Below, in pieces: positions 26,016 to 42,703 of a DNA stretch of 64,000 bases; the first letter of the stretch is position 1, and the number at the start of each line of letters is the position of its first letter. The notes under the pieces were generated by a model. That model searched no databases and was not told where the DNA came from. It saw only the letters and a list, made by a program, of their open reading frames with translations. Source of the DNA: Herbaspirillum sp. (GTDB taxonomy: Bacteria > Pseudomonadota > Gammaproteobacteria > Burkholderiales > Burkholderiaceae_D); NCBI RefSeq assembly GCF_035644555.1, contig NZ_DASQOH010000049.1:39839-103838 (forward strand). The letters run 5' to 3'. The position numbers and the translations under genes are program-made.

Positions 26016-26064
26016 TGAACACCCGAAAGCCCTGCCATTGCCAACACCAAATACATCTAGTTTC

Positions 26065-26079
26065 ATACCTTTTTTATAT
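26065..26079. promoter_or_regulatory. Candidate CatR/BenM-type LysR recognition site (ATAC-N7-ATAT)
   Basis: ATACcttttttATAT lies in the 135-nt catB/catR divergent region and resembles the ATAC-N7-GTAT sites of CatR/BenM regulators. Confidence 0.35.
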
Positions 26080-26150
26080 AGTTTTGCAGTGCACCCAAAG
26101 AAATCAAAGAATTAGACATCTTTTGTTCCCGTGCGATATGATTTTTGACC

Positions 26151-27104
26151 ATGGACATCAGACAACTGAAATACTTCGTCGCCGTCGCCAATACGCGCAA
26201 TTTCACGCGGGCCTCGGAGCAGCTGCACATCGCGCAGCCGCCCTTGAGCCGCCAGATCCAGCTGCTGGAAGAAGAACTGGGTGTGCAGCTGCTCCTGCGC
26301 AACAGCCGCCCGCTGCGCCTGACCGAGGCCGGCCGGGTGTTCTACGAGCAGGCGCTGCAGATCCTCAACCGCCTGGAGCAGCTGAAGAACGCCACCCAGC
26401 AGATCGGCCTGAACCAGCGCCAGACGCTGTCGATCGGCTTCGTCGCCTCGACCCTCTACGGTGGCCTGCCGGTACTGGTGCGCAAGCTGCGCCAGCACTA
26501 CCCGGAGGTGGATATCCAGTTGGTGGAACTGACCTCGATGCAGCAGTTCGCGGCCCTCAAGTCGGGCCGCATCGACATCGGCTTCGGCCGCATCCGCAGC
26601 AACGACGCCACGGTGGCGCGCATCGTCCTGCGCGAGGAAAAGCTGGTGCTGGCGATCCCGCCCTCCTTCCCGCTGGCGGCCAGCCACCAGCGCGTGAGCC
26701 TGAAGGAAGTGCATGGCCAGAAGCTGATCGTCTATCCCAAGGAACCGCGGCCCAGCTTTGCCGACCACATCCTGAGCCTGCTCAACGACCAGGACATCCA
26801 TCCCGCCGAAGTGCATGAGGTGCGCGAAATCCAGACCGCCCTGGGCCTGGTGGCGGCGGAGTCGGGCCTGTGCCTGATCCCGGCCTCGGCGCGCCTGCGC
26901 AATGATCTGCATTACCGGCTGATCGACGACCCGCGTGCCACCTCGCCCATCATCCTGACCCACCGCATCAACGACAACGCCTGGTACATCGAGGCCGTCA
27001 AGCAACTGGTGGCGGACATGTACGCCGAGCGCCCGGCCTGGCTGGACATCGAGACCAGCTCCTTCCCGGCCACCGGCTTCCCCAATCCCGAGCGGCACGA
27101 GTGA
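26151..27104 (+). CDS. catR: LysR-family regulator of the cat/ben genes (CatR/BenM-like)
   Basis: It has the LysR HTH MDIRQLKYFVAVANTRNFTRASEQLHIAQPPLSRQIQLLEEELG and is divergent from catB. The track start at 26145 is a TTG. Confidence 0.9.
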   Translation: MDIRQLKYFVAVANTRNFTRASEQLHIAQPPLSRQIQLLEEELGVQLLLRNSRPLRLTEAGRVFYEQALQILNRLEQLKNATQQIGLNQRQTLSIGFVASTLYGGLPVLVRKLRQHYPEVDIQLVELTSMQQFAALKSGRIDIGFGRIRSNDATVARIVLREEKLVLAIPPSFPLAASHQRVSLKEVHGQKLIVYPKEPRPSFADHILSLLNDQDIHPAEVHEVREIQTALGLVAAESGLCLIPASARLRNDLHYRLIDDPRATSPIILTHRINDNAWYIEAVKQLVADMYAERPAWLDIETSSFPATGFPNPERHE

Positions 27105-27174
27105 GGGCTGCAGTGGTGCTGCTGAGGTACAGCTGCATGCGTGCTTCATTGATGCACTGCGCTGTCGTCCCAGG

Positions 27175-27204
27175 TTGACATCCTCACCGGCACACGCCTA
27201 CACT
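27175..27204 (+). promoter_or_regulatory. Candidate sigma70 promoter for catC-catD (TTGACA-N18-TACACT)
   Basis: TTGACA at 27175-27180 and TACACT at 27199-27204, about 100 nt upstream of catC. Confidence 0.4.
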
Positions 27205-27225
27205 CGGTTGTGCGAATAAAGGATT

Positions 27226-27246
27226 AATGTTCGTTAATCGAACATT
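27226..27246. promoter_or_regulatory. 8-5-8 perfect inverted repeat AATGTTCG-ttaat-CGAACATT (candidate operator)
   Basis: Read directly from the sequence. It lies between the candidate promoter and the catC RBS. Confidence 0.35.
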
Positions 27247-27307
27247 CCATCTGAGGCTTCAGCCCTCGCCCCCACCATAATCACAACGCGATAACGGAGA
27301 AAACATC

Positions 27308-27595
27308 ATGCTGTTCATGGTCCAAATGCAAGTCAACATCCCCGCCACCCTGGACAAGGCGGTCGCCGACCAGTTGAAGAAGGACGAGAAGGAGATGGCG
27401 CAGAAGCTGCAGCGCGAAGGCAAGTGGCGCGACCTGTGGCGTGTGGTGGGTCAGTATGCGAATGTGAGCATCTTCAATGTCTCGGGCAATGACGAGCTGC
27501 ACAACATCCTCTCGGCGCTGCCGCTGTATCCCTTCATGAGCATCTCGGTCACCCCGCTGACCCAGCACCCCTCGGCCATCGCACAGATCGGCTGA
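27308..27595 (+). CDS. catC: Muconolactone delta-isomerase
   Basis: 95 aa. MLFMVQMQVNIP...REGKWRDLWRV is characteristic of CatC. Confidence 0.95.
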   Translation: MLFMVQMQVNIPATLDKAVADQLKKDEKEMAQKLQREGKWRDLWRVVGQYANVSIFNVSGNDELHNILSALPLYPFMSISVTPLTQHPSAIAQIG

Positions 27596-27668
27596 GCCTC
27601 CCCCTTCCCTGCTGACCACCATCGCGCGCCCCCGGCCTGATGCCGGCCGGCGCGTCAAGGATTGATCC

Positions 27669-28448
27669 ATGCCATTCGCAACACTGAACGGAATCAAGCT
27701 GCACTATCAACTCGACGGCGACGCCTCGCTGCCGGTGCTGGTGTTTTCCAATTCGCTGGGAACCTCGCTGGCGATGTGGGAGCCGCAGATGGCCGAACTG
27801 AGCCAGCACTTCCGCGTGCTGCGCTACGACACCCGCGGCCACGGCCAGTCGGAGGTCACGCCCGGCCCCTATACCATCGCCCAGCTGGGGGCTGACGTCA
27901 TCGCCCTGCTGGACCATCTGCAGATCGCCCAGGCGCATTTCTGCGGCCTTTCCATGGGCGGCAGCACCTTCATGTGGCTGGCGGTGCATCATCCGGAGCG
28001 GGTCAGGAAACTCATCCTCAGCAATACCGGGGCCAAGATCGGCACCCCCGAGGCATGGAACAGCCGCATCGAGACCGTGCAGCGCGAAGGCCTGTCTGCC
28101 ATCGCGTCGGCCGTAGTGTCACGCTGGCTGACGCCGGAGTATGCGGCCCAGCATCCGCAGCAGGTGCAAGCCCTGACCACGATGCTGTTGGCGACCCCGG
28201 CCGAAGGCTATGCCGGCGCCTGCGCAGCGGTGCGAGACAACGACCTGCGCGCAGCCATCGCCGGCATCACTGCCCCGACCCTGGTGATCGCTGGCAGCGG
28301 CGATGTGCCCACCCCGCCGGCCGACGGACAATTCATGCGCGACACCATCCCGGGCGCGCTGTATGTGGAATTCGATGCCGCCCACATCTCCAACCAGCAG
28401 CAGCCCAAGGCCTTTACCCAGGCCGTGCTGCAGTTCCTGAGCTCATAA
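27669..28448 (+). CDS. pcaD: 3-oxoadipate enol-lactonase
   Basis: An alpha/beta hydrolase (VFSNSLGTSLAMWEPQ, nucleophile elbow GLSMGG). 259 aa, following catC. Confidence 0.9.
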   Translation: MPFATLNGIKLHYQLDGDASLPVLVFSNSLGTSLAMWEPQMAELSQHFRVLRYDTRGHGQSEVTPGPYTIAQLGADVIALLDHLQIAQAHFCGLSMGGSTFMWLAVHHPERVRKLILSNTGAKIGTPEAWNSRIETVQREGLSAIASAVVSRWLTPEYAAQHPQQVQALTTMLLATPAEGYAGACAAVRDNDLRAAIAGITAPTLVIAGSGDVPTPPADGQFMRDTIPGALYVEFDAAHISNQQQPKAFTQAVLQFLSS

Positions 28449-28485
28449 ACCGCCGCGCCGTCCTCAACCCCGCCACCCTCATGCT

Positions 28486-30066
28486 TCAAGCGCGGGCGCG
28501 CGGCGGCGGACGGCGCAGCTCCAATTGCGCCAGGGTGTCGATATCGACCGGCTTGACCAGGTAGTCATCGACCCCGGCGTCGAAGGCTTCGCGCTTGTCT
28601 TCATCGCTGCTGAAACCGGAGCAGGCCAACAGATAGATGTCGCTGGTACGCGGATCGGCACGCAGGCTGCGCACCAGGTCGTGACCAGTCATGTCCTTGA
28701 GGCCGATGTCCAGCAACACCGCATCGGGCACCCATTCCTGGGCGCGGGCGATCGCCTTGCGGCCGCTGTAAACCGCGTCCACTTCATGCCCCAGCAATTC
28801 CATCAGTTCCTTCATGGTGTCGGCGATATCGACGTTGTCGTCCACCACCAGCACCCGCAGAGCGGCGCGCGGAACACTGGCGCCAGGCTCGGAGACGGCG
28901 CCGGCCGGGCCCTCCGCCGTCACCGCCCGGCTCTCTGTGGCCACCGGTAGCTCGCCCAGGTCGCGCTCCGGCGCGGCGCACGGCAGTTCGATACGGAACA
29001 GGCTGCCATGCCCGAGACCGGCGCTCTGCGCGGTCAGGCTCCCCCCATGCAGTTCGACCAGGCTGCGGGCCAGCGACAGACCGATGCCCAGGCCATCCTG
29101 GCGATCATGACCCAGGGCATTGGCCTGCGCGAACATGCCGAAGATATCGCCGAGGCGTTCGGCGGCGATGCCGATGCCCTCATCCCTGACCGTCAACACC
29201 ACCCGCTCGCCTTCGCCGCGCGCGGCCAGGTAGATGTGGCCGCCGTCCGGGCTGAACTTGGCGGCATTGTGCAGCAGGTTGATCAGGACCTGGGCCAGTC
29301 GGACTTCATCGCCCTCTACCGCCAGCGTGGCATCGGCCATGTCCAGGTGCAATTGCTGGTGCTTGCGCTCCATCAGCTGCTGGGTCGAATCCAGGGCATT
29401 GTCGATGACTTCGGCGACGCGGGTACGCCGCAACTGCAGGGCCAGCTTGTTGTGCGACAGGCGCGATACGTCCAGCAGATCGTCCACCAGCCGCACCATA
29501 TGGTCGAGGTGATTGGAGATGGTGGTGCGGGCCCGCATTTCCCACTCGGGTGCATGCGGGGCGCGCGTATTGAGGATGCCGATGGCATTGCGCATGGGGA
29601 CCAGCGGATTGCGCAGCTCGTGCGCCAGGATGGCCAGGAATTCATCCTTGCGCCGATCCATCTCGCGCAACTCGTTCTCCACCTTGGCCAGGCGCAGCAG
29701 CGCATGCACGTTGGCCACCAGCTCGGCCGGCTCGATCGGTTCGAACAGGTAGTTGTCGGCCCCGCCTTCGAGCGCACGGATCTTGTCGGCCACGCCGATG
29801 TAGGACGCCGAGGTCTGCAGCACCAGGCTGGATGCGGTCGCCGGATCGGCCTTGAGCCGGGCGCAGACTTCCATGCCATGGATGTCGGGCAGCTTCACAT
29901 CCAGCAGGATAAGCGCCGGCCGCAGCTCGCGCGCCAGGGCCAGCGCCTCGGTGCCGCTGGCGGCCTCCACCACGTGCAGCCCGGCCTTGGTCAGGATACG
30001 CGTGCGCGCATAGCGGGCGGCATCGGTGTCATCGACGTTGAGGATCAGTTGTTCTGGATGGCTCAT
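28486..30066 (-). CDS. Hybrid sensor histidine kinase (REC-HisKA-HATPase-REC)
   Basis: N-terminal receiver (LLDVKLPD), H-box LAHELRNPL, HATPase region (DEGIGI, GLGIGLSL) and a C-terminal receiver (VLLDIGLKD). Confidence 0.85.
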   Translation of the reverse strand: MSHPEQLILNVDDTDAARYARTRILTKAGLHVVEAASGTEALALARELRPALILLDVKLPDIHGMEVCARLKADPATASSLVLQTSASYIGVADKIRALEGGADNYLFEPIEPAELVANVHALLRLAKVENELREMDRRKDEFLAILAHELRNPLVPMRNAIGILNTRAPHAPEWEMRARTTISNHLDHMVRLVDDLLDVSRLSHNKLALQLRRTRVAEVIDNALDSTQQLMERKHQQLHLDMADATLAVEGDEVRLAQVLINLLHNAAKFSPDGGHIYLAARGEGERVVLTVRDEGIGIAAERLGDIFGMFAQANALGHDRQDGLGIGLSLARSLVELHGGSLTAQSAGLGHGSLFRIELPCAAPERDLGELPVATESRAVTAEGPAGAVSEPGASVPRAALRVLVVDDNVDIADTMKELMELLGHEVDAVYSGRKAIARAQEWVPDAVLLDIGLKDMTGHDLVRSLRADPRTSDIYLLACSGFSSDEDKREAFDAGVDDYLVKPVDIDTLAQLELRRPPPRARA

Positions 30067-30086
30067 GGCAGCATGGATACGGTTGT

Positions 30087-31889
30087 TCAGGCATTGACCT
30101 CGCGCATGGCGATTTCGTTTCGGGGCTGTGGCATGTCCACCAGCGAGCGCAGCGCCGCCAGCAGCTCATCACGTCCCATTGGCTTGAGGAAATAGGCATC
30201 CGCGCCCAGCCCCATGGCCTTGCTCTTGTCATCCACGTCGGAGGCGATGATGACCGGGACATCGCAGCGGGCGGGATCGTTCTTGATCTGCACCAGCCAG
30301 TGCCAGGCGTCCTTGCCATCCAGCAGGATATCCAATACCACGGCACAGGGTTCGCCGTTGCGCCACAGGGTTTCGGCCTCGCTCACGGAGGAAGCAGGTA
30401 CCACCCGGAACTCGGACTGATGCAGGTAGCGCTGGTACAGCAGGCGCAACTCGGGCCGGTCTTCCACCACCAGCACCGGCAGGCTGGCCAGCGCCGGTTC
30501 GGCCGGTTCGCGCGGGGCCAGCGACAGCCGCTCTGCCGCACCATCGGCCTGGTCATGGATGACCGGGATCACGGTACTGAAGGTGGAGCCTTCGCCCTGG
30601 CGGCTGCCCACCGTCACTTCACCGCCCAGCAGCGTGGCCAGCTGGCGGCACAACGGCAGACCCAGGCCGGTGCCCTTGACATGGCGTTGCAGATGGTTTT
30701 CCACCTGCGAGAATTCTTCGAAGATGATGCCGATGTGTTCGGGCGGAATGCCGATGCCGGTATCGGTCACCGAGAAACGCACCGCGCCGCCATGCGGCAG
30801 TGGCTCGGCCGTGACGGTGATACTGCCCTGCTCGGTGAACTTGATGGCGTTGGAAATGAAGTTGCGCAGAATCTGCGACAGCTTGCCTTCGTCGGTGAAC
30901 ATCTCGCAATCCTCGGGGGCGAAAAAGCTCAGGCGCAGCCGGTCCGACACCAGCAGGGGACGCAGCATACCGCGCAAGGCGCTGAAGAGCTCGGCCACCT
31001 GGAAGCGGCTGGGATGGATCTCGACCTTGCCGGCTTCGATCTTGGCCAGGTCCAGCAGGTCATTGACCAGTTCCGACAAGGCGCCGGCACTGTCGAGGAT
31101 GTAGCGCACCTGGCGTTCCTGCTCGGTGCTGAGTTCGCCATCGACCCGGTCCAGCAGCAATTTGGCCAGCGCCCGGATGGATGACAGCGGGGTGCGGAAT
31201 TCATGGCTCATGTTGGACAGGAAGCGTGACTTGGCCTCGTCGGCACGACGCAGGTGGTCGGCCTTTTCATCCAGCTCGGCATACAGCGCGACCACGCCGC
31301 GGTTGGTGTCTTCGAGTTCGCGGGTCAGTTGCAGCAATTCTTCCTGGCGGCCCTTGAGTTCGGCCAGGGTGGCCAGCAGCTCCTGGTTCTGCTGCTGGGT
31401 CTCGAACAGCGCCAGCCCGGCCGGCGCGGCCGCCAGCGCGGCACCGATCTCGCCGGCCACGCGCGGCGTGATCAGGCGCGCGGTGGGCGGCAGCAGCTTG
31501 CGCAGCAGCACGGTGGTGCCCTGCCCGCTGGCGGTCTGGATCTCGAAGGCATCCATGAGCTTGCGCGCGCCCAGCAGACCCAGCCCCATGCCGGTACTGG
31601 AACGATAGCGGCCGGACAGCACCAGTTCCACGTCGGCGATGCCCGGGCCCTGGTCGCGCACACCCATGAGCAGAGTCTGCGGAGCGGTCCTGCCTTCGAT
31701 GGAGAACTCCACCTGCCCGCGCCCGGCATAGCGGTAGGCATTGCGCGCCAACTCCGAAATGCTGGTAGCGATGCGCACCTGGTCCTGCGCATTGAAACCG
31801 CACAGGTCAGCGATCTGCCGGGCGCGCTGGCGCGCCCCGACCACGTCGACTTCATTGCCGATCGCCACAGTGAGCAAGCGCAGGCTCAT
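30087..31889 (-). CDS. Histidine kinase with an N-terminal RsbW/RsbT-like GHKL domain, coiled coil, HisKA-HATPase and a C-terminal REC
   Basis: N-terminal ELARNAYRYAG...DQGPGI...GMGLGLLGARKLMD (anti-sigma-kinase type). H-box MSHEFRTPL, then DTGIGI and GTGLGL. Receiver LVVEDRPE...VLDILL. Confidence 0.85.
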   Translation of the reverse strand: MSLRLLTVAIGNEVDVVGARQRARQIADLCGFNAQDQVRIATSISELARNAYRYAGRGQVEFSIEGRTAPQTLLMGVRDQGPGIADVELVLSGRYRSSTGMGLGLLGARKLMDAFEIQTASGQGTTVLLRKLLPPTARLITPRVAGEIGAALAAAPAGLALFETQQQNQELLATLAELKGRQEELLQLTRELEDTNRGVVALYAELDEKADHLRRADEAKSRFLSNMSHEFRTPLSSIRALAKLLLDRVDGELSTEQERQVRYILDSAGALSELVNDLLDLAKIEAGKVEIHPSRFQVAELFSALRGMLRPLLVSDRLRLSFFAPEDCEMFTDEGKLSQILRNFISNAIKFTEQGSITVTAEPLPHGGAVRFSVTDTGIGIPPEHIGIIFEEFSQVENHLQRHVKGTGLGLPLCRQLATLLGGEVTVGSRQGEGSTFSTVIPVIHDQADGAAERLSLAPREPAEPALASLPVLVVEDRPELRLLYQRYLHQSEFRVVPASSVSEAETLWRNGEPCAVVLDILLDGKDAWHWLVQIKNDPARCDVPVIIASDVDDKSKAMGLGADAYFLKPMGRDELLAALRSLVDMPQPRNEIAMREVNA

Positions 31890-32935
31890 CCAGCCTCTCC
31901 CCGGCGCAGCACCATGACGCTGACATCGTCACGGCCGCGATAGAAATCACGATAGAGCACGGCCGCAATCACGGCCGCGTGGGACTGTTCCAGCCCCGGA
32001 TAGGCGTCCAGCGACCAGCGGCTGGTGAGCCCGTCGGAATGGAGGATGAGCAACATCCCCTCCTGCCAGGGTGTCTCGAACTGCTGCACCTTGCGCAGGT
32101 TGTGACCGACGATGCCATTGACCGAGACCAGGTGGCGGCGCTGCCCCTCCAGGCTGGTGCAACAGGCGATATTGCCGACCCCGGCATAACATACCCGGCC
32201 GGCCTGCACGTCGACACCGGCGATGGCCACCGCCGCACCACGCGTCTTCTGCAAGGCGCCATGCATGCGCTGCGCCAGCTCGGCGGGCGGCAGGACGCGG
32301 CTGGCCGCGGTCATGTCGGTCATCACCTGCACGGCGGCATCGGCCGCCTCGGCGGCGGCATCGCCATGCCCCAGGCCGTCGGCCAGCACGAGCAGCAGCC
32401 CGTCATCGATGGTCGCGGCCCAGCCGGCGTCGCCGCACTGCCGTTCGCCCGGCAGCGGCAGGCATACCAGACCGCACTGCCAGTCCTGGCGCACGCCCGG
32501 GGTCTCCCACAGGACCGCGCGCAGCACCGTGCCGCGCCCGGGCCAGGAATAGAGGTCGAACTCATCGGACTGGCGCCGGATCGCGCCCAGCCCCACCCCA
32601 TAGGTGCCGGCGGTGGAATTGCCGTCGGCCATGGCGGCCTGGGCATCGTCCATGCCGGCACCATCGTCGATGGCCAGCATCTCGATGCCACGCACCGCCA
32701 CGGCCGCCGGTGTGCTTCCCATGACGGTACGCAGCAAGACTTCGCCATGCCCGGCATGCTTGAGAATATTGGTCGCCGCTTCCGTCACCACCAGCGCCAG
32801 TCGCGCCGCCGGTTCGGCCGCGAAGGCCAGCCGCCGCGTCAGATCGGCTGCCGCCCGGCGGGCTGCCGCGACATCCACGGTTTCATTGACGGCGATGCAT
32901 TCCTCGGTCCGCGAGGCCGTCAGAACAGTTTCCAT
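31886..32935 (-). CDS. RsbW-like GHKL domain fused to a SpoIIE/PP2C phosphatase
   Basis: N-terminal TEAATNILKHAG...DDGAGM...GVGLGAIRR. The C-terminal PP2C pattern is CGDAG...VLADGLGHGDAAA...LHSDGL. It overlaps both neighbours (16 nt and 4 nt). Confidence 0.85.
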   Translation of the reverse strand: METVLTASRTEECIAVNETVDVAAARRAAADLTRRLAFAAEPAARLALVVTEAATNILKHAGHGEVLLRTVMGSTPAAVAVRGIEMLAIDDGAGMDDAQAAMADGNSTAGTYGVGLGAIRRQSDEFDLYSWPGRGTVLRAVLWETPGVRQDWQCGLVCLPLPGERQCGDAGWAATIDDGLLLVLADGLGHGDAAAEAADAAVQVMTDMTAASRVLPPAELAQRMHGALQKTRGAAVAIAGVDVQAGRVCYAGVGNIACCTSLEGQRRHLVSVNGIVGHNLRKVQQFETPWQEGMLLILHSDGLTSRWSLDAYPGLEQSHAAVIAAVLYRDFYRGRDDVSVMVLRRGEAG

Positions 32936-33330
32936 TTGATGATGCTTACCTGGGTTCCCGCGCCCGGCGCGGTATCGATCTCGAATTCATCGGCCAGCCG
33001 TTTGGCACCGGAAAGTCCCAGCCCAAGGCCGCCGCCGGTGGTGTAGCCATCGGTGAGGGCCAGCGCCACGTCGGCAATGCCCGGCCCCTGGTCGGCGAAC
33101 ACCAGCCGCAGGCCACGCCTGCTGCCATTGTGCAGCTCGTCCACGCGGGCTACTCCACCACCACCGTAGCGCAGTGTATTGCGCGCCAGTTCGCTGGCCG
33201 CCGTCACCATCTTGGTCTGCTCCACCAGCGAAAAGCCCAGCCGTACCAGATGGTCGCGCACCAGCTTGCGCAGGCGCACCACATCTTCATCGCTCTGCAG
33301 GGACTGGGTCAGCAGTTGCTGTTCATCCAC
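32920..33330 (-). CDS. rsbT: Anti-sigma regulatory factor-type Ser/Thr kinase (RsbT-like)
   Basis: 136 aa with ASELARNTLRYGGGG...DQGPGI...GLGLGLSGAKRLADEF. Confidence 0.85.
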   Translation of the reverse strand: MDEQQLLTQSLQSDEDVVRLRKLVRDHLVRLGFSLVEQTKMVTAASELARNTLRYGGGGVARVDELHNGSRRGLRLVFADQGPGIADVALALTDGYTTGGGLGLGLSGAKRLADEFEIDTAPGAGTQVSIIKWKLF

Positions 33331-33363
33331 CGGGTACCTCGCACTTCATGCAGGGCGAGGTCA

Positions 33364-33720
33364 TCAGTCCATCTCCGACTCGAGCAACTTGACGCCGCGT
33401 TCCACGTTCAGGGCGGTGCGCACGCCTTCCAGCGTCAGGCCCAGTTCCACCAGAGTGATGGCCACGGCCGGCTGCATGCCCACCACCACGGTCCGGGCGT
33501 CCAGCACGCGCGCCATCGAGGCGGTATTGCTGATCATGCGGCCGATGAAGGAATCCACCACGTCCAGCGCGGAGATATCGATCAGCACACCGCGCGCACG
33601 GTCCCTGACGATACGCTCGGTCAGGTCGTCCTGCAGCGCCATGGCCAGGCGGTCGTGCATGTCGACCTGGATGGTCACCAGCAACAATCGCCCCATGCGC
33701 AGGATAGGGATGCGTTCCAT
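33364..33720 (-). CDS. rsbS: STAS-domain stressosome scaffold protein (RsbS-like)
   Basis: 118 aa, single STAS domain (IPILRMGRLLLVTIQVDMHD...IDISALDVVDS...ELGL). Confidence 0.9.
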   Translation of the reverse strand: MERIPILRMGRLLLVTIQVDMHDRLAMALQDDLTERIVRDRARGVLIDISALDVVDSFIGRMISNTASMARVLDARTVVVGMQPAVAITLVELGLTLEGVRTALNVERGVKLLESEMD

Positions 33721-33723
33721 GGA

Positions 33724-34590
33724 TTACTGCTCCGAATTCTGGACAGTGACCCGCGAACCGGTCTTCTTGAGCGCGATCATGAAGGCATCGGCCAGGGTGG
33801 CCTTGGTGGTCACATCTTCCAGGTTCACGCCCAGGTGCACGATGGTCTGGGCGATCTGCGGACGGATGCCGCTGATGATGCAGTCCGCGCCCATCAGACG
33901 GGCGGCGGCGATGGTCTTGAGCAGGTGCTGGGCCACCAGGGTATCGACAGTGGGCACGCCGGTGATGTCGATGATGGCGATCATGGCGCCGGTCTCGACG
34001 ATCTTCTGCAGCAGGCTTTCCATCACCACCTGGGTACGCGCGCTGTCGAGCGTGCCGATCAGCGGCAGCGCCAGCACGTTCTGCCACAGCTGCACCACCG
34101 GCGTGGACAGCTCCAGCAGTTCCTGCTGCTGACGCAGGATGACCTGCTCGCGCGCCTTCTGGTGCACTTCGATGGTGTACAGGCCCAGCTTGTCGAACAG
34201 CGAACTGGTGGCTGCGATCTCCCGTGCCAGGAGGGCCGGTTCACCGCCCAGGGCGCTACGCAGATGGTCGTAGATCGGCTCCTTGAGGGCGAACACGAAG
34301 CTGGCCGTATCCAGCGAGGAAAAGCCCTGCAGGGCGCGGGTGCGCGAGACTTCGCCCAGCAGGTGGCGCACGTCGGCCCAGTCGCCACCGTCGGTATCGC
34401 TGCCGGCGCCGCTGGACAGGGTACGCGCCAGCAGCGACAGGAACTGTTCGGCTTGGCGGCGGATCTCGAATTCACCGCTCTTTTCCTTGCGGCCCAGTTT
34501 CGAAGTCAGGGTCTGCAGCCATTGGTCGAGCAGGCGGTGCTGGTGGTCGTTGAGAATCAGGGTCAGTTGTGGCAGTTGCGCGGAAGTCAT
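33724..34590 (-). CDS. rsbR: RsbR-like stressosome sensor (N-terminal helical sensor domain plus C-terminal STAS)
   Basis: 288 aa. The C-terminal STAS is VVQLWQNVLALPLIGTLDSART...IDITGVPTVDT. The N-terminal ~140 aa are helical. Confidence 0.85.
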   Translation of the reverse strand: MTSAQLPQLTLILNDHQHRLLDQWLQTLTSKLGRKEKSGEFEIRRQAEQFLSLLARTLSSGAGSDTDGGDWADVRHLLGEVSRTRALQGFSSLDTASFVFALKEPIYDHLRSALGGEPALLAREIAATSSLFDKLGLYTIEVHQKAREQVILRQQQELLELSTPVVQLWQNVLALPLIGTLDSARTQVVMESLLQKIVETGAMIAIIDITGVPTVDTLVAQHLLKTIAAARLMGADCIISGIRPQIAQTIVHLGVNLEDVTTKATLADAFMIALKKTGSRVTVQNSEQ

Positions 34591-34853: not shown

Positions 34854-34883
34854 TTGGCAGGCTCACGTGGTGCTGTTTATAAT
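34854..34883 (+). promoter_or_regulatory. Candidate sigma70 promoter TTGGCA-N18-TATAAT
   Basis: TTGGCA at 34854-34859 and a consensus TATAAT at 34878-34883, about 28 nt upstream of the small-gene start. Confidence 0.45.
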
Positions 34884-34910
34884 GCGGCCGAAACCATAGG
34901 AGGAAAACAG

Positions 34911-35219
34911 TTGGGCCAACGTGCAAACATGATCTCTTGTTACGAAGTGACGGGACATTCTTCGCCGTTCATGTTCAGGGTATGGTGCGCCACCCGCGCC
35001 GACACCTGGTTCGTCAGCGGTGTCGAAATCCGTCACCAGTCGCTGGGGCAGCTCTTCCCCAAGCGTTCCCTGCCGGGCCTTTACGACTCCAAGCCCCTGG
35101 CCCTGGCCCGCGGCATCCACTGGTGCGAATGCGTGGCCCATCAATTGCTGGAGGCCGAGGTACCGGAAGTCCCCTCCGGCCTCTTGCCTCCCGGACGGAT
35201 AGTGCGCGAGTTGCGCTGA
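34911..35219 (+). CDS. Small hypothetical protein (102 aa), no recognisable domain
   Basis: TTG at 34911 has a perfect AGGAGG (34898-34903) at 7-nt spacing and is in frame with ORF 34785..35219. An alternative ATG is at 34929. A hairpin follows the stop. Confidence 0.5.
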   Translation: MGQRANMISCYEVTGHSSPFMFRVWCATRADTWFVSGVEIRHQSLGQLFPKRSLPGLYDSKPLALARGIHWCECVAHQLLEAEVPEVPSGLLPPGRIVRELR

Positions 35220-35251: not shown

Positions 35252-36478
35252 TTACAACCAGGCTTCCTGCTCGGCCTTGCGTCCCTCGGTTTGCATCGCC
35301 TCGCACAGGGCGCGTAGCGAAGCCGGCAGCGAAGGGCGTGCCAGCAACACGCCCAGCAAGCGGCGATCATGTGCATTCAGCGGCCAGCGCTGGGTAGTGC
35401 TCTGCCATTGGGCGAGCCCCATCTGGTAGGGTTCCCAGGTCAGGCCGGCCTGCTCCCATCGACTACCGACCGTGCAGGCAATGTCGACACCGGCCGGGTC
35501 GGCATCGGCACTGATCCACGCCGGCGCAGGTGCCAGTTGCAGCAAGTGCGACACCGTCGCCAGCCAGGCCGGTGAGGGACGCCCGGGCATCCACAGCAGT
35601 GCCACGCCGGCTGGGCGCTGACGTGCCTGCAGTTCGAAGCTGGTACGGTTTTCGATCAGCCACCATTGCCGTGGCGCAGTGAGGGCATCGGCAACCAGCA
35701 GATCGTCCAGTGGCAGGCCGACGCAATGCAGCGGCGCCAGTTCCAGCCGACGTCCTTGCCAGGAGAAGACCAGATCGCCGGAGAGCCACCCCACCTGGGC
35801 AAAACTGGCGATGTTCAATCGTTCGAGATCGAATAACGCCTCCAGCCAGCGCCATTCACTTGCACTGAGCGACTTGGTCAGGTCACGCGCTTGGAGCGCA
35901 AAGTTGCGCCGCAATCCCTGCTGGCCACTGTCGTGCCAAGCCGCCAGCGCCCGCAGCAGGCCCAGGCGAGCTTCCAGCACGTCGGCGCGCAGGGACTTGT
36001 CCTCTTCCAGTGCCTTGAGGGCGAGCGTAAGTTCATCCAGCAGGTCGGGGTCCAGCAACGTCTGCTGGACATTGCCGCGTTCGAGCAGCCACTGCCGGGC
36101 CTGCTCCAGCATGGCTTGTCGCGCCTGCTTTCGTTGCTCGGCATGGATGATGCCCAACAAACCCTGCAGGCGGCGCAAGTCGCGCCAGGCAATAGTCTTC
36201 CACAGCCAGTTACCCCCCTTGAGCTCCTCGCGCCGGCTGATCCAGCCCTCTTGCAGCAGACGTTGACACAGGCGTTCGGCACGTTCGATGCCCAGCCCTA
36301 CCGACTGTGCCTCCTTGAGCATGGCGTCACGGCTGCGGGAGCCGGCCTCGCCTCGTGCCCAGCGTTCCAGCGCGGCACGCTCTTCCTTGTCCAGCAGCAG
36401 CAAGCTGTCTGGCACCGCATGCGCGGCGACCAGATCATGCTGGTTGCGGCCATGCGGCGTCTCTAGCAGCGCACTCAT
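35252..36478 (-). CDS. jetD: Wadjet/Mks nuclease subunit JetD (MksG-like, Toprim domain)
   Basis: 408 aa. C-terminal Toprim-like motifs WWLIENRTSFE (catalytic Glu) and WISADADPAGVDI (DxD). It is the last gene of a four-gene SMC-like cassette. Confidence 0.8.
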   Translation of the reverse strand: MSALLETPHGRNQHDLVAAHAVPDSLLLLDKEERAALERWARGEAGSRSRDAMLKEAQSVGLGIERAERLCQRLLQEGWISRREELKGGNWLWKTIAWRDLRRLQGLLGIIHAEQRKQARQAMLEQARQWLLERGNVQQTLLDPDLLDELTLALKALEEDKSLRADVLEARLGLLRALAAWHDSGQQGLRRNFALQARDLTKSLSASEWRWLEALFDLERLNIASFAQVGWLSGDLVFSWQGRRLELAPLHCVGLPLDDLLVADALTAPRQWWLIENRTSFELQARQRPAGVALLWMPGRPSPAWLATVSHLLQLAPAPAWISADADPAGVDIACTVGSRWEQAGLTWEPYQMGLAQWQSTTQRWPLNAHDRRLLGVLLARPSLPASLRALCEAMQTEGRKAEQEAWL

Positions 36479-36489
36479 GGTCCGGTGCT

Positions 36490-39303
36490 TCAGGCATCCA
36501 GCCGCAGCCGCCGCTGCAACACCCCGATGGGCGGCGCCCAGCGGGCCTCACGCGGTTTCTTCGAGGTCACCAGCGTGATATCGGCCGGCTCGAACACTTC
36601 CACGTTGTGGGTGATCGGTGTGGTCAGCACGTACTGCGCGCGGGTCGACTTGAGGAAGTTGCCGACCAGCTGGATGTTGCGTACATCCAGGTGGGCAAAG
36701 GGTTCGTCGATGAAGACGAAGCCGCCCGGCATGTCGTCATCCTTCAACAAGCCCACCAGCAGGATCAGCGACTTGATGACCTGCTGCCCGCCTGAGGCTT
36801 CGCCGTCGTTCAGGCCGATCTCGCCCTTGCCGTCGAAGTTGAAGCTGACCTTCAGCTCGGCCTGGCGCAACACGGTGTCGTCGTTGTCCAGGTGCGGCAG
36901 GTCGGCGCTGACGATCACGCCGGCCAGCGCACCGAGATCGACGATGTTCTTGCGATAGCGCCGCACGGTGGCGCGCAGCACGTCGATGTAGCGCTCGCGG
37001 GCATTGCCCACCGCTTCCTCGGCCTGGGCGTTGCTGATCTTGCGCGAGTCCAGTTCGTTGCGCTGGTTGCCCACCGTGCCTTGCATGATGAGGTGCTTGT
37101 CTTCGACGGTGCCGTCCTTTTCCCACTGGCCGCTTTCCAGCTCGGTTTCCACCGCCGCCATGCGCAGTTCGGCCTGCTTGGCGTTGCTGTATTTCTCGTA
37201 CAGCGCCTGCACGGCATCGGCGCCGATCCAGCGTTGCGGGAAGCGCCCCTTCTGCGCCCGCGAGGCCAGCGCGCGGGCGCGCTGCTCGTCGTGGCGGGTG
37301 CGCCAGTCGCGCTCCTGGCCGGCCAGGTCGCCTTCGGTGTCGCGCAGGCGGCGCTGCAGGCCCTGGTACTTGCCATCGATGATGGTGCGCTGTTCGATCG
37401 CGTCGGCATGCTGCGCATCCAGTTGCGTCCAGCGTTCACTGGCGGCCACGCGGGCTGCGCGCAGCGACGGCAGCTGGCGTCTGGCCTGCTCGAATTCTTC
37501 ACTGCGAGCAGCCAGTTCCTCGGCGGCCAGGTGGCCTTCGGTGGCTTTCTTGGCGGCCTCCAGCTGGCGCTTGACCTCGCTCTGCTTGAGCACGACATCG
37601 GTGAGCTGATCGTCCAGCGTGGCCAGGCGTTTCTGGATCGAGGCCTGGCGCGAGGCCATGGCGGCGGCGCCAAACTGATAGTCACCCGGATCGCGCCAGA
37701 CGCTGCGTCCGCCCCGACCGTCGCGCCAATAGGCTTGCGGCGTGATCCATTCGCCGCCCAGACGCGCACCCTCGACGGTATCGTCCACGCGGCGGATCTG
37801 CGCCAGCTGGCGCAGCAGCCAAGACGGTGCCTTGGCGGAGAAACGCAGCACCGCCAGCAGGCTGTCCGCGGCCGGCTGGGCCGGTGCGGTGGTGGCGTCC
37901 GACACCACGTAGTGACGATAGCGCTCGCGCTCGGCCAGGGCCATGGCGGCGGCTTCATCCTTGGGGTCGTCCAGCACCACCACCCAGCAGGAAGCGCGCA
38001 GCACCCCTTCGGCGGCGGCGCGCCAGTGGTCGTCGCCGATCTCGATGACATCGGCCAGGATGTGGTGCGCAATGCCGGCCTGGCGCAGACTGCGGCTGAA
38101 CTGCTGCACATCGCCCGGCTTGGGCGCCAGGCGCTGTCCGCTCAGGCCTTCCAGGGCGCCCTGAGCTTCCTTGCGCTGCTGCTCCAGGTCGCGCCAGCGG
38201 TCGTTCAATGCGCCCTTCTGCTGTTCCAGTTCTTCCACCCGTGACAGCAGTTGCGCGGCATCGCCTTCCACTGCCGACAGGGCCAGCAGTTCATCGGCCT
38301 GCTTGACCAGTTCCTCGACCGGCTTTTCGGCATCGCGCGCCTTTTGCTGGGCCTGCTGGGCCTCGGCCTTGTCGCGTTCCAGCGTGCTCACCTTTTCGCG
38401 GGCGGCCTGCTGTTGCGTCAGCAGTGACGACAGCTGCAGCGCATCGCTGCTGCGCTGGCGACGCTGCTCGTTGTGATGCAGGCGCTGGCGATGCAATTCG
38501 CGCAGGCGGCCGGCCGTGGTCTGGCGCTCTTCATGCCAGCGCAGCACGGGGATCACTTCGGCGGCCAGGATTTCACGCTCGCGCAGCTTGCCCTGGTATT
38601 GCCGATACAGGGTCACGCGGCTGTCGAGCTGCGCCAGTTGCGCCTCGCTATAGGCCAGTTCCTGCTCGGCCAGCGTTACTTCTGCGGCGAGGTCGCGCTG
38701 GTGGCGGCGGGCTTCTTCGTAGCGGTCCAGCACCTCCTGGTCACCGAAGACCTCGAACACCAGCCGCAGCAATTCCTTGGGCGAGAATTCACAGAGGCGG
38801 TCGGTCTGGCCCTGCTCCAGCGCCAGCACGCGGGCAATCGCGCGCGACAGCCCGGCACCTTCCAGACGCTTGCGCCAGTGGTCCAGGCCCAGCCAGTCCT
38901 TCTCCGGCAGTTGCGCCAGGGTTTCGATGGCGACATCGCCATCACTCATGCAGTAGCGTCGTTGCCAGTCGCCACCGTTGCGCTCGATGCGGCAGGCCAG
39001 CGTGACCTGATCGGCATAGAGCAGGTTGCGGGCGAACGGACGGGTGGAGGTCTGGCGGCCATGCGGACGGTTGTCCACCGTGGCGCGCAGCCAGGTGGTG
39101 TCGGCATTGGCGTGCCGGGCATAGGTCTTGTAGCTGCGCCCACCCGAGCACTCCAGCCCGAGCAGGGTACGCATGGCGTCCAGCAGCGTGGTCTTGCCGG
39201 AGCCGTTGGGGCCGGCGATGGTGATGATGGAGCCGTCCAGGGGCAGCGTCAGGCGCTGGCAATAGTCCCACTGCAGCAGTTCCAGCGATTGCAGGTGGAA
39301 CAT
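36490..39303 (-). CDS. jetC: SMC/Rad50-like ABC ATPase JetC (MksB-like)
   Basis: Walker A GPNGSGKT (39190-39213), Q-loop LEQGQ, signature ASGGQ, and Walker B/D-loop FVFIDEPFAHLD (36685-36720). The central part is a long E/Q/R/A/L-rich coiled coil. A strong AAGGAG RBS sits inside the jetB 3' end. Confidence 0.85.
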   Translation of the reverse strand: MFHLQSLELLQWDYCQRLTLPLDGSIITIAGPNGSGKTTLLDAMRTLLGLECSGGRSYKTYARHANADTTWLRATVDNRPHGRQTSTRPFARNLLYADQVTLACRIERNGGDWQRRYCMSDGDVAIETLAQLPEKDWLGLDHWRKRLEGAGLSRAIARVLALEQGQTDRLCEFSPKELLRLVFEVFGDQEVLDRYEEARRHQRDLAAEVTLAEQELAYSEAQLAQLDSRVTLYRQYQGKLREREILAAEVIPVLRWHEERQTTAGRLRELHRQRLHHNEQRRQRSSDALQLSSLLTQQQAAREKVSTLERDKAEAQQAQQKARDAEKPVEELVKQADELLALSAVEGDAAQLLSRVEELEQQKGALNDRWRDLEQQRKEAQGALEGLSGQRLAPKPGDVQQFSRSLRQAGIAHHILADVIEIGDDHWRAAAEGVLRASCWVVVLDDPKDEAAAMALAERERYRHYVVSDATTAPAQPAADSLLAVLRFSAKAPSWLLRQLAQIRRVDDTVEGARLGGEWITPQAYWRDGRGGRSVWRDPGDYQFGAAAMASRQASIQKRLATLDDQLTDVVLKQSEVKRQLEAAKKATEGHLAAEELAARSEEFEQARRQLPSLRAARVAASERWTQLDAQHADAIEQRTIIDGKYQGLQRRLRDTEGDLAGQERDWRTRHDEQRARALASRAQKGRFPQRWIGADAVQALYEKYSNAKQAELRMAAVETELESGQWEKDGTVEDKHLIMQGTVGNQRNELDSRKISNAQAEEAVGNARERYIDVLRATVRRYRKNIVDLGALAGVIVSADLPHLDNDDTVLRQAELKVSFNFDGKGEIGLNDGEASGGQQVIKSLILLVGLLKDDDMPGGFVFIDEPFAHLDVRNIQLVGNFLKSTRAQYVLTTPITHNVEVFEPADITLVTSKKPREARWAPPIGVLQRRLRLDA

Positions 39304-40031
39304 CAGAATTCTCCTTCTTCGTCTGCCGGCTGCACGGGCGTGGATGCAGGCGTGGGCGTGGCCTGGTCAACCGCTGCCGCTTCTTCACGGGCAGTGGCGC
39401 GGGCCAGCACTTCGCCCAGGGCGCCATCGAGGATGCGCGGCGCCAGGGCGTCGTAGTCCAGCAGCAGGTCCAGCAAGGGGCCTTCGGCGATGTCGTCACC
39501 GCGTCGCACGATGAAGCCGTGAGCTTCCAGGCGACGCAGGTTGCCGTCCATGCGCATCTTCTTACCCAGCTGCGTGCCGAAGTCGGCCAGCAGCGATCGA
39601 TAGGACACCACCGGGCTGACCTCGGCGGCGCTGGGCATGGGCTTGTCGGTGTGGAACATCTCTTCCTGCTGCTCGCCAGCGTCACCGGCGGCGCGCGCCG
39701 ACTGGCGCTCGCGCTTGGGCAGCACGATCAGCGACCACAGCACCACCAGCAGCGAGATCGCATCGCGTGGCAGGTCGATGTTGTTGTTGGCGTTCATGCC
39801 GGCTTCGCCGAAGACGGCATACTCGGCTGGGCGCACCAGCGCCACGCTGATATGGTCGGCGTGGATATTGTCCACCAGCCGCAAACCCACCTGCGCCAGC
39901 CGGTCCTGCAGCGCCTGCCACAGGTCGGCATCGATCAGGGCGCGGCGCACGCGGGGATGCTTGCGCGGCAGCCAGCGGCGGGCCAGCAGTTCGGCGGCCA
40001 GCAGGCCGGCCTCGTCTAGGGTCTCACTCAT
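39303..40031 (-). CDS. jetB: Small Wadjet/Mks subunit JetB (MksE-like)
   Basis: 242 aa. Start re-picked at MSETLDEAG (ATG 40031), overlapping the jetA 3' end by 8 nt; its stop shares 1 nt with the jetC ATG. The call rests on size and position in the cassette, with no sequence motif read. Confidence 0.65.
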   Translation of the reverse strand: MSETLDEAGLLAAELLARRWLPRKHPRVRRALIDADLWQALQDRLAQVGLRLVDNIHADHISVALVRPAEYAVFGEAGMNANNNIDLPRDAISLLVVLWSLIVLPKRERQSARAAGDAGEQQEEMFHTDKPMPSAAEVSPVVSYRSLLADFGTQLGKKMRMDGNLRRLEAHGFIVRRGDDIAEGPLLDLLLDYDALAPRILDGALGEVLARATAREEAAAVDQATPTPASTPVQPADEEGEF

Positions 40032-41388
40032 TCGGTCTTTCCCGGGATGGATCTGGATGGATGGCGCCGCCACTGATGGCGGCGACATCCGGGTCATCGA
40101 TTTTCTCGACCAGCGGCAGGAAGCCGGCCTGCCACGGCAGGCGCGCCAGGTCGCCGGTCTGGCCCTGCAGGGTCTGCGCCTGGCGGTCGCCCAATAGCGG
40201 CAGCAACTGCAGGCGATAGGCGGCCTTGCCGAAGCTGCCACCCAGTACCACGGTGGACAGCGGCAACGACTGCGGCTGGCCCTCGTCGCCCTCTTCCGGC
40301 ATGGCGCCCAGCCGGCCCAGCTGGGCGATCAAATCCCCCAGTTCGACCGGCATGTGCAGCGCTTCGATCTTGCCCTCCACCGCCTGGGCGGGGGGCGGCA
40401 GGCCTTGCGAGCGTTGCGCGTCGGGGCGGTCGCGTTCGAACTCGCCCTCGGCCACGTCCAGCAATTCGTGGCCGCTGACGAAGACCGGCTTGACGCCCAT
40501 GGACAGCGCCTCCCCCATCAGGGAGGACAGGTCGGGATGGCTCTGCAACCAGCGCCGCACGTCCGAACTGGTCACGCCGGTGCTGCCGAGCGTGACGCGC
40601 TGGCGATCAGCCTGTTGCAGGGCGCGGGTGAACTGGCTGGCCATGGTCAGCAGACGGGCCTGGCCATTGCCCAGGGCGCGGGCTTCGCGCTCCAGACGGG
40701 CATCGGCATGTTCGCTGCGGATCAGGGCGGTCAGGGCCTCACCGGCGCGGTTGACCAGCTTCAGGGCGCGTTCGAAACGCGGCTGCGCTTCGCGCAGCAG
40801 GGCTTCGGAGCCACTTTCGATGGCATCGGCGAACTGGTCGTGCAGGCGCGCCAGCTGGGCATGCAGGTGGCGGATCTGGCTGGCGTCGGACAGGCCCAGG
40901 GCCTGGGCCCCGGCCACCTGCGAGAGCAGCGCGGCCATCTCGTCATCCTCGCCCACGGCGCGCGTGAGCGGCGCCAGCAGGGCTTGCACCTGCTGGGCGA
41001 TGGGCGAGAGCTGGTAATCCTGGTCGGTGGCATCCCAGACCAGCAGGCCCAGGTCACGCAGGCGCTTGAGCGCGGCGTCCATGGCCTCGGGTTTCAGGGC
41101 GTAGAACAGCTGGTTCAGGTCCTCGCGCTGCAGCCGCCCTTGCGGCTGGGCCGCCAGTTCCAGGAACACCCAGATGCGCAGGCGTGCCGCCGCCTGGCCA
41201 CCGGAGACCAGGCCGCGCAGGGCGTCCAGCACATCCAGCCGCTGGCCCAGGCCCCAGGCCAGGGGCGCTTCGGCGGCCTGCGTGGGATCGCGGAAATAGC
41301 TCTCGAAGGAGCCTGATTCATGCTCGTCCGCAAGGGGAGCGGGGTCGAATTCTTCTGTCAATTTGTCGTGGAGGTTGGCCAGGACCAT
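40024..41388 (-). CDS. jetA: Kleisin-like Wadjet/Mks subunit JetA (MksF-like)
   Basis: 454 aa, largely helical, and the first gene of the cassette. The call rests on size, order and coupling to jetB/C/D; no diagnostic motif was read. Confidence 0.65.
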   Translation of the reverse strand: MVLANLHDKLTEEFDPAPLADEHESGSFESYFRDPTQAAEAPLAWGLGQRLDVLDALRGLVSGGQAAARLRIWVFLELAAQPQGRLQREDLNQLFYALKPEAMDAALKRLRDLGLLVWDATDQDYQLSPIAQQVQALLAPLTRAVGEDDEMAALLSQVAGAQALGLSDASQIRHLHAQLARLHDQFADAIESGSEALLREAQPRFERALKLVNRAGEALTALIRSEHADARLEREARALGNGQARLLTMASQFTRALQQADRQRVTLGSTGVTSSDVRRWLQSHPDLSSLMGEALSMGVKPVFVSGHELLDVAEGEFERDRPDAQRSQGLPPPAQAVEGKIEALHMPVELGDLIAQLGRLGAMPEEGDEGQPQSLPLSTVVLGGSFGKAAYRLQLLPLLGDRQAQTLQGQTGDLARLPWQAGFLPLVEKIDDPDVAAISGGAIHPDPSRERPNE

Positions 41389-41524
41389 GCCTGGAACCCG
41401 CCCTGCACAGTGGGCGGATCGGCAAGTTTAGCAGGCCCGGGGGTTGGCCTCCAGCAAAGCGGGTGGGAGAGCGGTGGAAGCGAGGAACAGATTATTGCTT
41501 ACGAACAACAAACCACCTTGTTAT

Positions 41525-42703
41525 TCACCGCCCCAGCCTGATCGCCTCATACGGCGTCTGCAGATCGCGCTCGGGGATTTCCCATACCACCAGCTTGGGC
41601 GGTGTCTGGGTGAAGGCAGGGTTGGAGAAATACTCGTTGGCGCTGCCGGAGAATTTGCCGCCATCCTTGGCGAAGCTGCCGATCTTCGCACCCAGCGCCT
41701 GCTGCAGGAAGCCCACGAAATTGGAATTGCGCGAGAACGAGGTGCCGATCAAGGCCACATTGGGCAGTTGCTGGTCGCCCAGCAGGTCGTCCAGGTCGTC
41801 GCCCCCTTTGGCGGCTTCGGCCGGTGCAGTCGGTGCAGGCCCCGCTGCTGCCACTTCCTTGAATTCGGTGGCCGCGACCTCTTCCGGCTGGGGTTGCCAG
41901 CGCAGTGGCAGCCAGTCCAGGCCGGCCAGGTGGACCAGGTCGCCGGGGCGGCGCGCCAGCGGGCCGGGCTGGGCCTGATAGGCCTGCGCCGGTGTGGGCT
42001 GCAGGCCGGCGGCACGCACCTGCGCGGCAATCACAGCAGCCGCGGCCTGCGCGCCGGTTTCGTTCCAGTGGGTATCGGTGCGTAGCCAGGCCGAGGCACC
42101 GAGCGGTGCCAGCGTGGGGGCCAGGTCGATGGCACGCACACCGGCCTGCTGCAGGCCGGCGACCCATTGGGTGGCACGTGCTTCCAGCTGGGCCGGGCGC
42201 GACAGGCCGCACAACTGCGCGGCGGCGATGCGGCTCTTGTCGGGCACCACCGCCACCAGCAGGGCGATGTCGCGCTGGGCCAGCTTCTGGCGCAGCGCGA
42301 TGACGGCCTGCAGCTTGGCCTGGGCGTTGGCCTGGGCGTCGCGATGGACCTGCAATTCCTCGGTCAGGAACAGCCAGCCGGGGCAACCGCTGCGCACCCG
42401 GGGGCCGGTGTCATGCAGCAACAGCCAGCTGCCGGCGCGTTCCAGCCGGGCGGCCTGTTCCGGCAGCCAGGCATTGGACAACTGCTTGGCGATGCGATGG
42501 GTCAGTTCCCCATGCAGGGCATCGTCACGGGTCCAGCTGGCGGGCAGCCATTCGATCTTGCCGGCATAGACCAGCCAGCCACAGCCCAGCAGGCCGGCTG
42601 CCAGCACCACGGCCAGGACCAGGCCGGCCCAGCGGCTGGCGCGCCGGGCCAGGGCGCTGGGGGCGGCCGGCGTGGCGGGAGCGGAGACGGGAGGCGTGCT
42701 CAT
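41525..42703 (-). CDS. wssI: AlgJ/AlgX-like polysaccharide O-acetylation protein (WssI-like)
   Basis: 392 aa with an N-terminal membrane anchor. It has the SGNH-like AlgJ pattern (VVPDKSRI, LRTDTHWN) and follows the MBOAT gene. Confidence 0.8.
   Translation of the reverse strand: MSTPPVSAPATPAAPSALARRASRWAGLVLAVVLAAGLLGCGWLVYAGKIEWLPASWTRDDALHGELTHRIAKQLSNAWLPEQAARLERAGSWLLLHDTGPRVRSGCPGWLFLTEELQVHRDAQANAQAKLQAVIALRQKLAQRDIALLVAVVPDKSRIAAAQLCGLSRPAQLEARATQWVAGLQQAGVRAIDLAPTLAPLGASAWLRTDTHWNETGAQAAAAVIAAQVRAAGLQPTPAQAYQAQPGPLARRPGDLVHLAGLDWLPLRWQPQPEEVAATEFKEVAAAGPAPTAPAEAAKGGDDLDDLLGDQQLPNVALIGTSFSRNSNFVGFLQQALGAKIGSFAKDGGKFSGSANEYFSNPAFTQTPPKLVVWEIPERDLQTPYEAIRLGR

Follow-up and report, generated by a model that had tools for sequence, protein, structure and literature searches.

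What kind of system is encoded by the four tightly packed genes at positions 35,252 to 41,388 of a 64,000-nucleotide stretch of Herbaspirillum sp. DNA (contig NZ_DASQOH010000049.1, here referred to as the window)? A first-pass annotation, made from the letters alone, had read this cassette as a Wadjet/MksBEFG-type system. In our analysis the proposed architecture was recovered, with a structural maintenance of chromosomes (SMC) ATPase, a small partner, a protein in the kleisin position and a Toprim protein, whereas the cassette was not recognizable as any of the described Wadjet types I-III. We consider it probable, at roughly two chances in three (0.68), that the cassette encodes a diverged Wadjet/MksBEFG-type SMC complex.

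The genes, here named A to D, are the following:

40024-41388, minus strand: gene A, 454 aa, in the kleisin position, orphan family (called as an open reading frame, ORF)
39303-40031, minus strand: gene B, 242 aa, putative KITE subunit, distantly JetB/MukE-like (DUF4194), with an acidic variable tail
36490-39303, minus strand: gene C, 937 aa, SMC-type ABC ATPase with heads, two coiled-coil arms and a hinge
35252-36478, minus strand: gene D, 408 aa, CAP-arm-Toprim nuclease, JetD/MksG/Top6A-like

All four genes are co-directional and stand in the order jetA-jetB-jetC-jetD, which was identical in 41 related loci. Reading the junctions directly gave an 8-nt overlap between A and B (ATGAGTGA), a 1-nt overlap between B and C (TGATG) and an 11-nt gap between C and D (AGCACCGGACC). 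The four genes are translationally coupled. The gene number, sizes and junctions of the first-pass annotation were all reproduced by the ORF list and this reading, and every motif quoted there reappeared on translation.

Protein C matched the SMC_N family of Pfam at 54 bits (cut-off 40), together with AAA_29 and AAA_23. In PADLOC eight JetC1 models ranked highest (best E 7.5e-21); most of the aligned length falls in the arms and the hinge, so these matches are not very specific. NCBIfam and the PDB returned generic SMC and Rad50 heads only, and no JetC subtype could be given to C. Across 71 aligned homologues 298 residues were invariant, including Walker A, Q164/Q166, the signature, Walker B and H899 of the H-loop. 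Conservation was high in residues 1-200 and 775-930, the two head halves, moderate in residues 395-545 and lower in the arms. The features within C are:

39190-39213, minus strand: Walker A motif GPNGSGKT, residues 31-38, invariant in the 71 sequences
36703-36798, minus strand: signature ASGGQ (residues 836-840) to Walker B FVFIDE (residues 862-867), invariant in the 71 sequences
37669-38121, minus strand: putative hinge, approximately residues 395-545, inferred from raised conservation between arms rich in E, Q, R, A and L, boundaries approximate

Judged by its sequence, C is an SMC-type ABC ATPase with a head-arm-hinge-arm-head pattern. The shortness of this JetC had been listed as an anomaly; however, every full copy in the family has 934-948 aa, so the short JetC is a fixed property of the family.

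Protein D had a single Pfam match, to DUF2399 (PF09664), at 26.7 bits and hence above the gathering cut-off of 23.4, and it matched JetD1 of PADLOC at E 1.8e-7. The AlphaFold2 model (predicted local distance difference test score, pLDDT, of 92) consists of an N-terminal winged-helix region of strands and helices, long helices and a C-terminal alpha/beta domain. Comparison of this model with the PDB by Foldseek gave eleven matches at E <= 0.001, all of which were topoisomerase VI-A, Spo11 or MksG. The best of them, including the MksG nuclease of Corynebacterium glutamicum (8b7f), reached E 2.6e-8 to 1.1e-5 at a probability of 1.0. The Toprim call made earlier for the 408-aa protein is thus borne out by the fold of the predicted model as well as by the Pfam score.

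35279-35794, minus strand: Toprim domain of D, approximately residues 229-400, with E276 (35651-35653) and D325-x-D327 (35498-35506)

The motifs LIENR and SADADPAGV lie at residues 274-278 and 323-331. E276, D325 and D327 were invariant in 52 database homologues as well as in the window copy and 36 locus copies, and among the 52 homologues no invariant tyrosine was present anywhere in D. Because the Toprim glutamate and the DxD are invariant and tyrosine is unconserved, D fits a hydrolytic nuclease of the JetD/MksG type and not a topoisomerase. Topoisomerase VI A and Spo11, as the best structural matches, have the CAP and Toprim domains and the metal site of E and DxD in common with D; D differs from them not only in the missing tyrosine but also in having no Top6B-like partner and in being encoded with an SMC motor. 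The CAP-arm-Toprim fold is likewise common to D and C. glutamicum MksG. JetD itself is described as an arm-CAP plus Toprim protein, of which E248A is the nuclease-dead mutant (10.1101/2023.11.03.565488).

The ATPase head of C also matches the LmuB, AriA, MADS3, PtuA and GajA models of PADLOC, and pairs of an ATPase and a Toprim protein are common in defence systems (PMC11464382). The cassette might accordingly be read as another SMC-like defence system, either similar to Lamassu/DdmABC or an ATPase plus Toprim pair similar to PARIS, Gabija or OLD, which senses phage or DNA ends and performs no loop extrusion. We regard this as very improbable. The additional matches are confined to the P-loop and signature regions or, as in the case of LmuB, are weaker than those to JetC1, and in PADLOC neither LmuA nor LmuC was matched by A, B or D, so that no LmuA-type effector was found. 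Two extra subunits occupy the kleisin and KITE positions, and the Toprim domain of D is of the Top6A/MksG type with CAP and arm, not of the OLD/AriB type. Finally, C has a hinge-like centre and arms of strictly conserved length, as true SMC proteins do.

The start of B was placed at an ATG within a longer GTG ORF, since the resulting N-terminus (M-x4-D-x-A-x2-L) is conserved in 38 homologues. The sole recurrent family match among the B members was DUF4194 (PF13835, now JetB in Pfam), which was matched by 37 of the 38 at E <= 0.1. The best family value was 4.7e-6, and the window copy scored 19.3 bits against a cut-off of 32.7. PADLOC added weak matches to JetB1 and JetB3 (E >= 0.0036). These sub-threshold sequence matches hint at a distant relative of JetB/MukE (DUF4194) and a putative KITE protein. 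B comprises about 215 conserved residues followed by a variable acidic tail. This tail (39303-39390, minus strand; alignment columns 220-324) is longer in a mostly D-less clade of Aquabacterium, where it carries a LPLALTQPPLEE-like motif.

Protein A is the orphan of the cassette. Neither the window protein nor any of 47 relatives and 10 distant relatives with about 20-30% identity had a family match in Pfam, PADLOC or NCBIfam. A bridge to a known family by way of the most distant relatives was discarded, as these have no Pfam family either. Searched against the PDB, a broad profile of the A family matched only the winged helix of a PadR-type regulator (E 0.0011), which supports an N-terminal winged helix-turn-helix. 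In the AlphaFold2 model (pLDDT 72) winged helices are predicted towards both the N-terminus (residues 65-127) and the C-terminus (348-445); between them lie long helices (150-262) and then a disordered linker (298-344). The same layout of winged-helix domain, helical region, linker and winged-helix domain has been described for JetA (10.1101/2023.11.03.565488). Among 350,542 chains searched with Foldseek, the four best fold matches of A were MukF (9gm7_C and 7nz2_C1) and E. coli JetA (8as8_E and 9qxt_E). By its gene position, its predicted architecture and these top, non-significant fold matches, A looks like a kleisin.

Among the known systems type I Wadjet (JetABCD of E. coli GF4-3 and P. 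aeruginosa PA14, MksBEFG of C. glutamicum and EptABCD of Mycobacterium smegmatis) has the same gene order and the same four-subunit logic. The sizes are similar as well, B and E. coli JetB both having 242 aa (10.1101/2025.03.10.642339). B leans to DUF4194, and the best PADLOC matches of C and D are JetC1 and JetD1. In contrast, A is without a DUF3375/JetA signal, B remains below threshold, and C is approximately 160 aa shorter than E. coli JetC, which reportedly has about 1100 aa (the JetC1 models of PADLOC span 1097-1215 positions). In the scheme of Doron et al. from 2018, DUF2399 is said to mark types II and III, and DUF2220 and DUF3322 are said to mark type I. The cassette combines its type I leanings (DUF4194, JetC1 and JetD1) with DUF2399 and could not be assigned to any of types I-III. 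Of the elements that define Wadjet, the gene order, JetC and JetD were found, whereas JetA (DUF3375 or DUF2397) was not found by sequence and JetB (DUF4194 or DUF2398) gave only sub-threshold matches. The cassette's family also differs from Wadjet in that its nuclease gene is often absent.

MukBEF of E. coli resembles the cassette in its operon order F-E-B and in the 1-nt overlap of mukE and mukB, and MukF is the top, although non-significant, fold match of A. MukB is considerably larger than C (1486 aa versus 937 aa), and MukBEF has no nuclease and is an essential housekeeping complex in its hosts. Aligned with single E. coli sequences by hhalign, the A family reached a probability of 1% with MukF and the B family of 0.3% with MukE, and in Pfam and NCBIfam no cassette protein matched the MukB, MukE or MukF families.

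A pattern scan detected a relative of A in at least 309 of 185,579 species genomes, the best 80 of which were all Burkholderiales, one Azonexus, or unclassified proteobacterial metagenome-assembled genomes. Such recurrence of the gene set speaks for more than a chance arrangement. An exhaustive search with the A profile among 1.84 billion representatives yielded only 230 clusters at E <= 0.001, with distant branches in Janthinobacterium and Luteimonas that are all named 'hypothetical'. Protein A is 100% identical in Herbaspirillum frisingense GSF30. Identities across genera were 61-77% for A, 66-81% for B, 63-75% for C and only 38-64% for D. The location of the cassette is not the same in all genera, nor even throughout Herbaspirillum: only the H. 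frisingense/H. huttiense group has the wss and Rsb flanks in common, and other Herbaspirillum species have the cassette elsewhere. Neighbours of loci with D were AbiEii/AbiEi in Burkholderia pseudomallei, HipAB and a resolvase in Xylophilus and an AlpA/DUF3987/YagK island in Herminiimonas; the exact D protein of B. pseudomallei was present on only five contigs. The family was absent from IMG/VR, in which phage carriage was looked for, and on plasmids only fragments disrupted by insertion sequences (IS) were found, on Variovorax megaplasmids. The family is small, patchy and mostly confined to Burkholderiales, and its distribution is that of an accessory, defence-like gene set and not of a housekeeping one.

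That the nuclease gene is dispensable across this family had escaped the first-pass annotation. The presence of D was counted over 72 loci having enough DNA downstream of C, and D was absent in 31 of these (about 45%). The D-less loci that were examined sit among metabolic or housekeeping genes, and within the fetched loci neither tblastn nor a D-profile search of the downstream ORFs detected a D-like ORF. A hidden or replaced effector was rejected on the same grounds. Homology to the window breaks off at the stop of C in both H. huttiense and H. aquaticum and resumes at 35219, just past the stop of D, with about 50 nt between the homologous segments; the gap is therefore gene-sized, and in H. 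huttiense it is clean. The neighbour-joining tree of C largely follows genera and places the D-less loci in about eight or more separate positions; by parsimony on this tree D was lost independently roughly eight or more times. Because the trees of D and C are congruent, D is ancestral to the cassette, with repeated losses rather than gain or swapping. Within a single subclade of Aquabacterium, loci without D lie in the same atp-operon context as a locus with D, which points to loss in place; across Aquabacterium the synteny of D-less loci is conserved in one subclade only.

In D-less pairs the omega values (Nei-Gojobori) of A, B and C lay at 0.03-0.26, and in D-plus pairs at 0.04-0.23; those of D were 0.10-0.41. 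For the window cassette and its nearest relative the values were 0.04-0.19 (A, B and C) and 0.16 (D). Judged from these ratios, A, B and C are under equally strong purifying selection with or without D, and the motor is thus maintained without the nuclease.

In two Herbaspirillum strains (locus L010, 14902-16158, and locus L011, 14920-16158) D is found on very long branches with its catalytic residues intact. It is 49-53% identical to the D of the window, beside an A at 83-92%, and sister lineages have lost D. Horizontal swapping of D in these strains was rejected, since the congruence of the D and C trees indicates long branches and not foreign alleles.

The frequent absence of D, the clean gap in H. 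huttiense, the repeated losses and the unchanged selection on A, B and C would all suit a different explanation. The core ABC could be a secondary, MksBEF-like condensin for chromosomal organization or segregation, with D as an optional accessory and a main role other than defence. The 61-81% identity of A, B and C across genera, a C tree that largely follows taxonomy and the metabolic and housekeeping surroundings of the D-less loci examined argue in the same direction. However, the D of the window is intact, with invariant catalytic residues and an omega of 0.16, and is tightly coupled to C. The family is also far too patchy for a housekeeping function, its locations are not conserved and some copies are broken by IS elements. 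As an account of the cassette we consider such a condensin rather unlikely. For the D-less relatives the Mks-like condensin, which had been raised as an alternative from the beginning, stays alive, D being dispensable.

The MksBEF complex of P. aeruginosa is a nuclease-free trio of kleisin, KITE and SMC proteins that coexists with the main SMC, and it is compared here with the cassette by gene content. Its proposed origin is a JetABCD ancestor that lost JetD (PMC10586767), and according to reviews loss of JetD from Wadjet may have given rise to the Mks- and Muk-type condensins. The D-less relatives look like the same transition: a nuclease-free set was found in 31 relatives, whereas the window still has D. 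The losses in the cassette's family differ in being recent, repeated and visible between sister species.

Several results weigh against a Wadjet/MksBEFG-type complex. The first-pass annotation had made its proposal dependent on significant family hits for JetA, JetB and JetD; in the library searches A gave none, B came halfway and D had one. B never reaches the Pfam cut-off of PF13835. No relationship of A to JetA, MksF or MukF could be detected by sequence, and its fold matches to MukF and JetA are not significant (E 0.02-0.16). None of the four proteins matched the solved JetABCD chains of the PDB by sequence, and the same applies to the MukBEF chains; sequence and profile searches with A, B and D were without a match to JetA, JetB, JetD, MukE or MukF, and B had no PDB match at all. 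In the Foldseek comparison the JetD proteins of E. coli and P. aeruginosa were not among the significant fold matches of D. Furthermore, the window cassette lies between a cellulose operon and a stressosome-like module, without mobile-element or defence neighbours. Finally, the dispensability of D in about 45% of the loci implies that the motor must also have a nuclease-independent activity. For the window itself a nuclease-armed complex is nevertheless favoured, because its D is intact, under selection and tightly coupled.

If the cassette works as a Wadjet/MksBEFG-type complex, C would dimerize through its hinge and form an ATP-driven motor. A would be the kleisin that closes the C ring and, by analogy to JetA and MukF, its N-terminal winged helix would also join two motors into a pair. 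B (KITE) would sit as a dimer on the middle of A, and D would dock on the loaded complex. As in type I Wadjet, the motor would extrude DNA until a small circle is fully extruded, and the stalled complex would then let D cut. Extrusion followed by cleavage is established for type I Wadjet (PMC10586767; 10.1101/2023.11.03.565488). From this analogy the most likely role of the cassette in Herbaspirillum would be the restriction of incoming plasmids. Computation gave the operon structure, the intact ATPase motifs, the fold and catalytic residues of D, the domain layout of A and the weak link of B to JetB; complex assembly, loop extrusion, the sensing of circular DNA and anti-plasmid activity are all extrapolated from the characterized systems.

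Transposases or foreign genes interrupt some related copies. The GC content at third codon positions is lower in D (0.75) than in A, B and C (0.83-0.85) and in the flanking genes (0.84-0.91), a difference in codon usage limited to the nuclease gene. This raises the question whether the cassette has decayed or lost its function in its source genome. Such a state is scarcely credible, as the four frames are intact, the junctions are coupled, the catalytic motifs are all present and the omega values relative to the nearest relative, given above, are low for A, B and C as well as for D.

A clade such as that of the cassette, or a fourth Wadjet type, was not described in the literature that we searched. 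We tentatively raise the possibility of a fourth, previously unclassified Wadjet-like SMC lineage with a kleisin family of its own, in which the nuclease is facultative and has been shed about eight or more times and the motor stays under full selection. In that case the nuclease-free motor would have its own function, for example plasmid control without cleavage or a condensin-like role, and H. frisingense (with D) and H. huttiense (without D) would capture the proposed evolution of a defence SMC into a chromosomal one. Recent and repeated loss of D between close relatives, with the motor under selection, offers matched natural pairs for the study of a nuclease-free Wadjet motor. The orphan protein A in the kleisin position would extend the known sequence range of kleisins.

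A and B have no usable match in PADLOC, Pfam or NCBIfam, the best being the sub-threshold DUF4194 match of B, and public records name the cassette proteins only as hypothetical, AAA ATPase or DUF2399. The cassette is therefore probably a blind spot of defence-system finders. In defence censuses of Burkholderiales, to which Burkholderia pseudomallei and the plant-associated Herbaspirillum belong, SMC-based plasmid restriction is probably under-counted, which bears on the genetic tractability of these bacteria.

Individual relatives showed rearrangements of their own. In Hydrogenophaga sp. MI9 (locus L054, 11850-13400) B is truncated, and an IS3-type transposase has inserted where B meets C. In Aquabacterium fontiphilum (locus L045, 11950-14000) B and C are separated by two inserted genes, one for a TetR regulator and one that is DAPG-hydrolase-like. 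On the megaplasmid of Variovorax sp. WDL1 (locus L088, 8025-9488) a C homologue (53% identity) is represented by its N-terminal half, which lies between an IS66 element and an IS1071 transposase, adjoining IncP-type kle and kor genes and an antirestriction gene. A megaplasmid of Miltoncostaea oceani (locus L089, 4333-8151) encodes a trio of 374, 182 and 718 aa, the last being an ATPase whose head is 26% identical to that of C; this trio may be a miniature kleisin-KITE-SMC-like set without a nuclease.

In the window, the gene upstream of A encodes an ALGX-domain (wssI-like) protein (41525-42703), and the 136-nt gap below the cellulose operon that had been noted earlier is real.

41389-41524, minus strand: spacer of 136 nt from the wssI-like gene to A, with a possible promoter of its own or read-through

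Neither a terminator-like nor a sigma-70-like site was found within this spacer. A genomic island was also considered and rejected: the window contains no tRNA, Rfam match or flanking repeat, and the GC content of the cassette (0.674) is close to that of the window (0.663), in agreement with the first description of the locus as free of island marks.

Downstream of the cassette (26000-34590, minus strand) lie an RsbR/RsbS/RsbT-like stressosome module and, after it, a SpoIIE phosphatase and a pair of hybrid histidine kinases. Convergent with D lies an ORF of 102 aa (34911-35219, plus strand) without a Pfam family, which is preceded by a near-consensus sigma-70-like promoter (TTGGCA-18-TATAAT, 11/12; promoter and ORF together at 34854-35219, plus strand). 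Gene calls in metagenome contigs include this ORF, and it is also conserved in the D-less H. huttiense.

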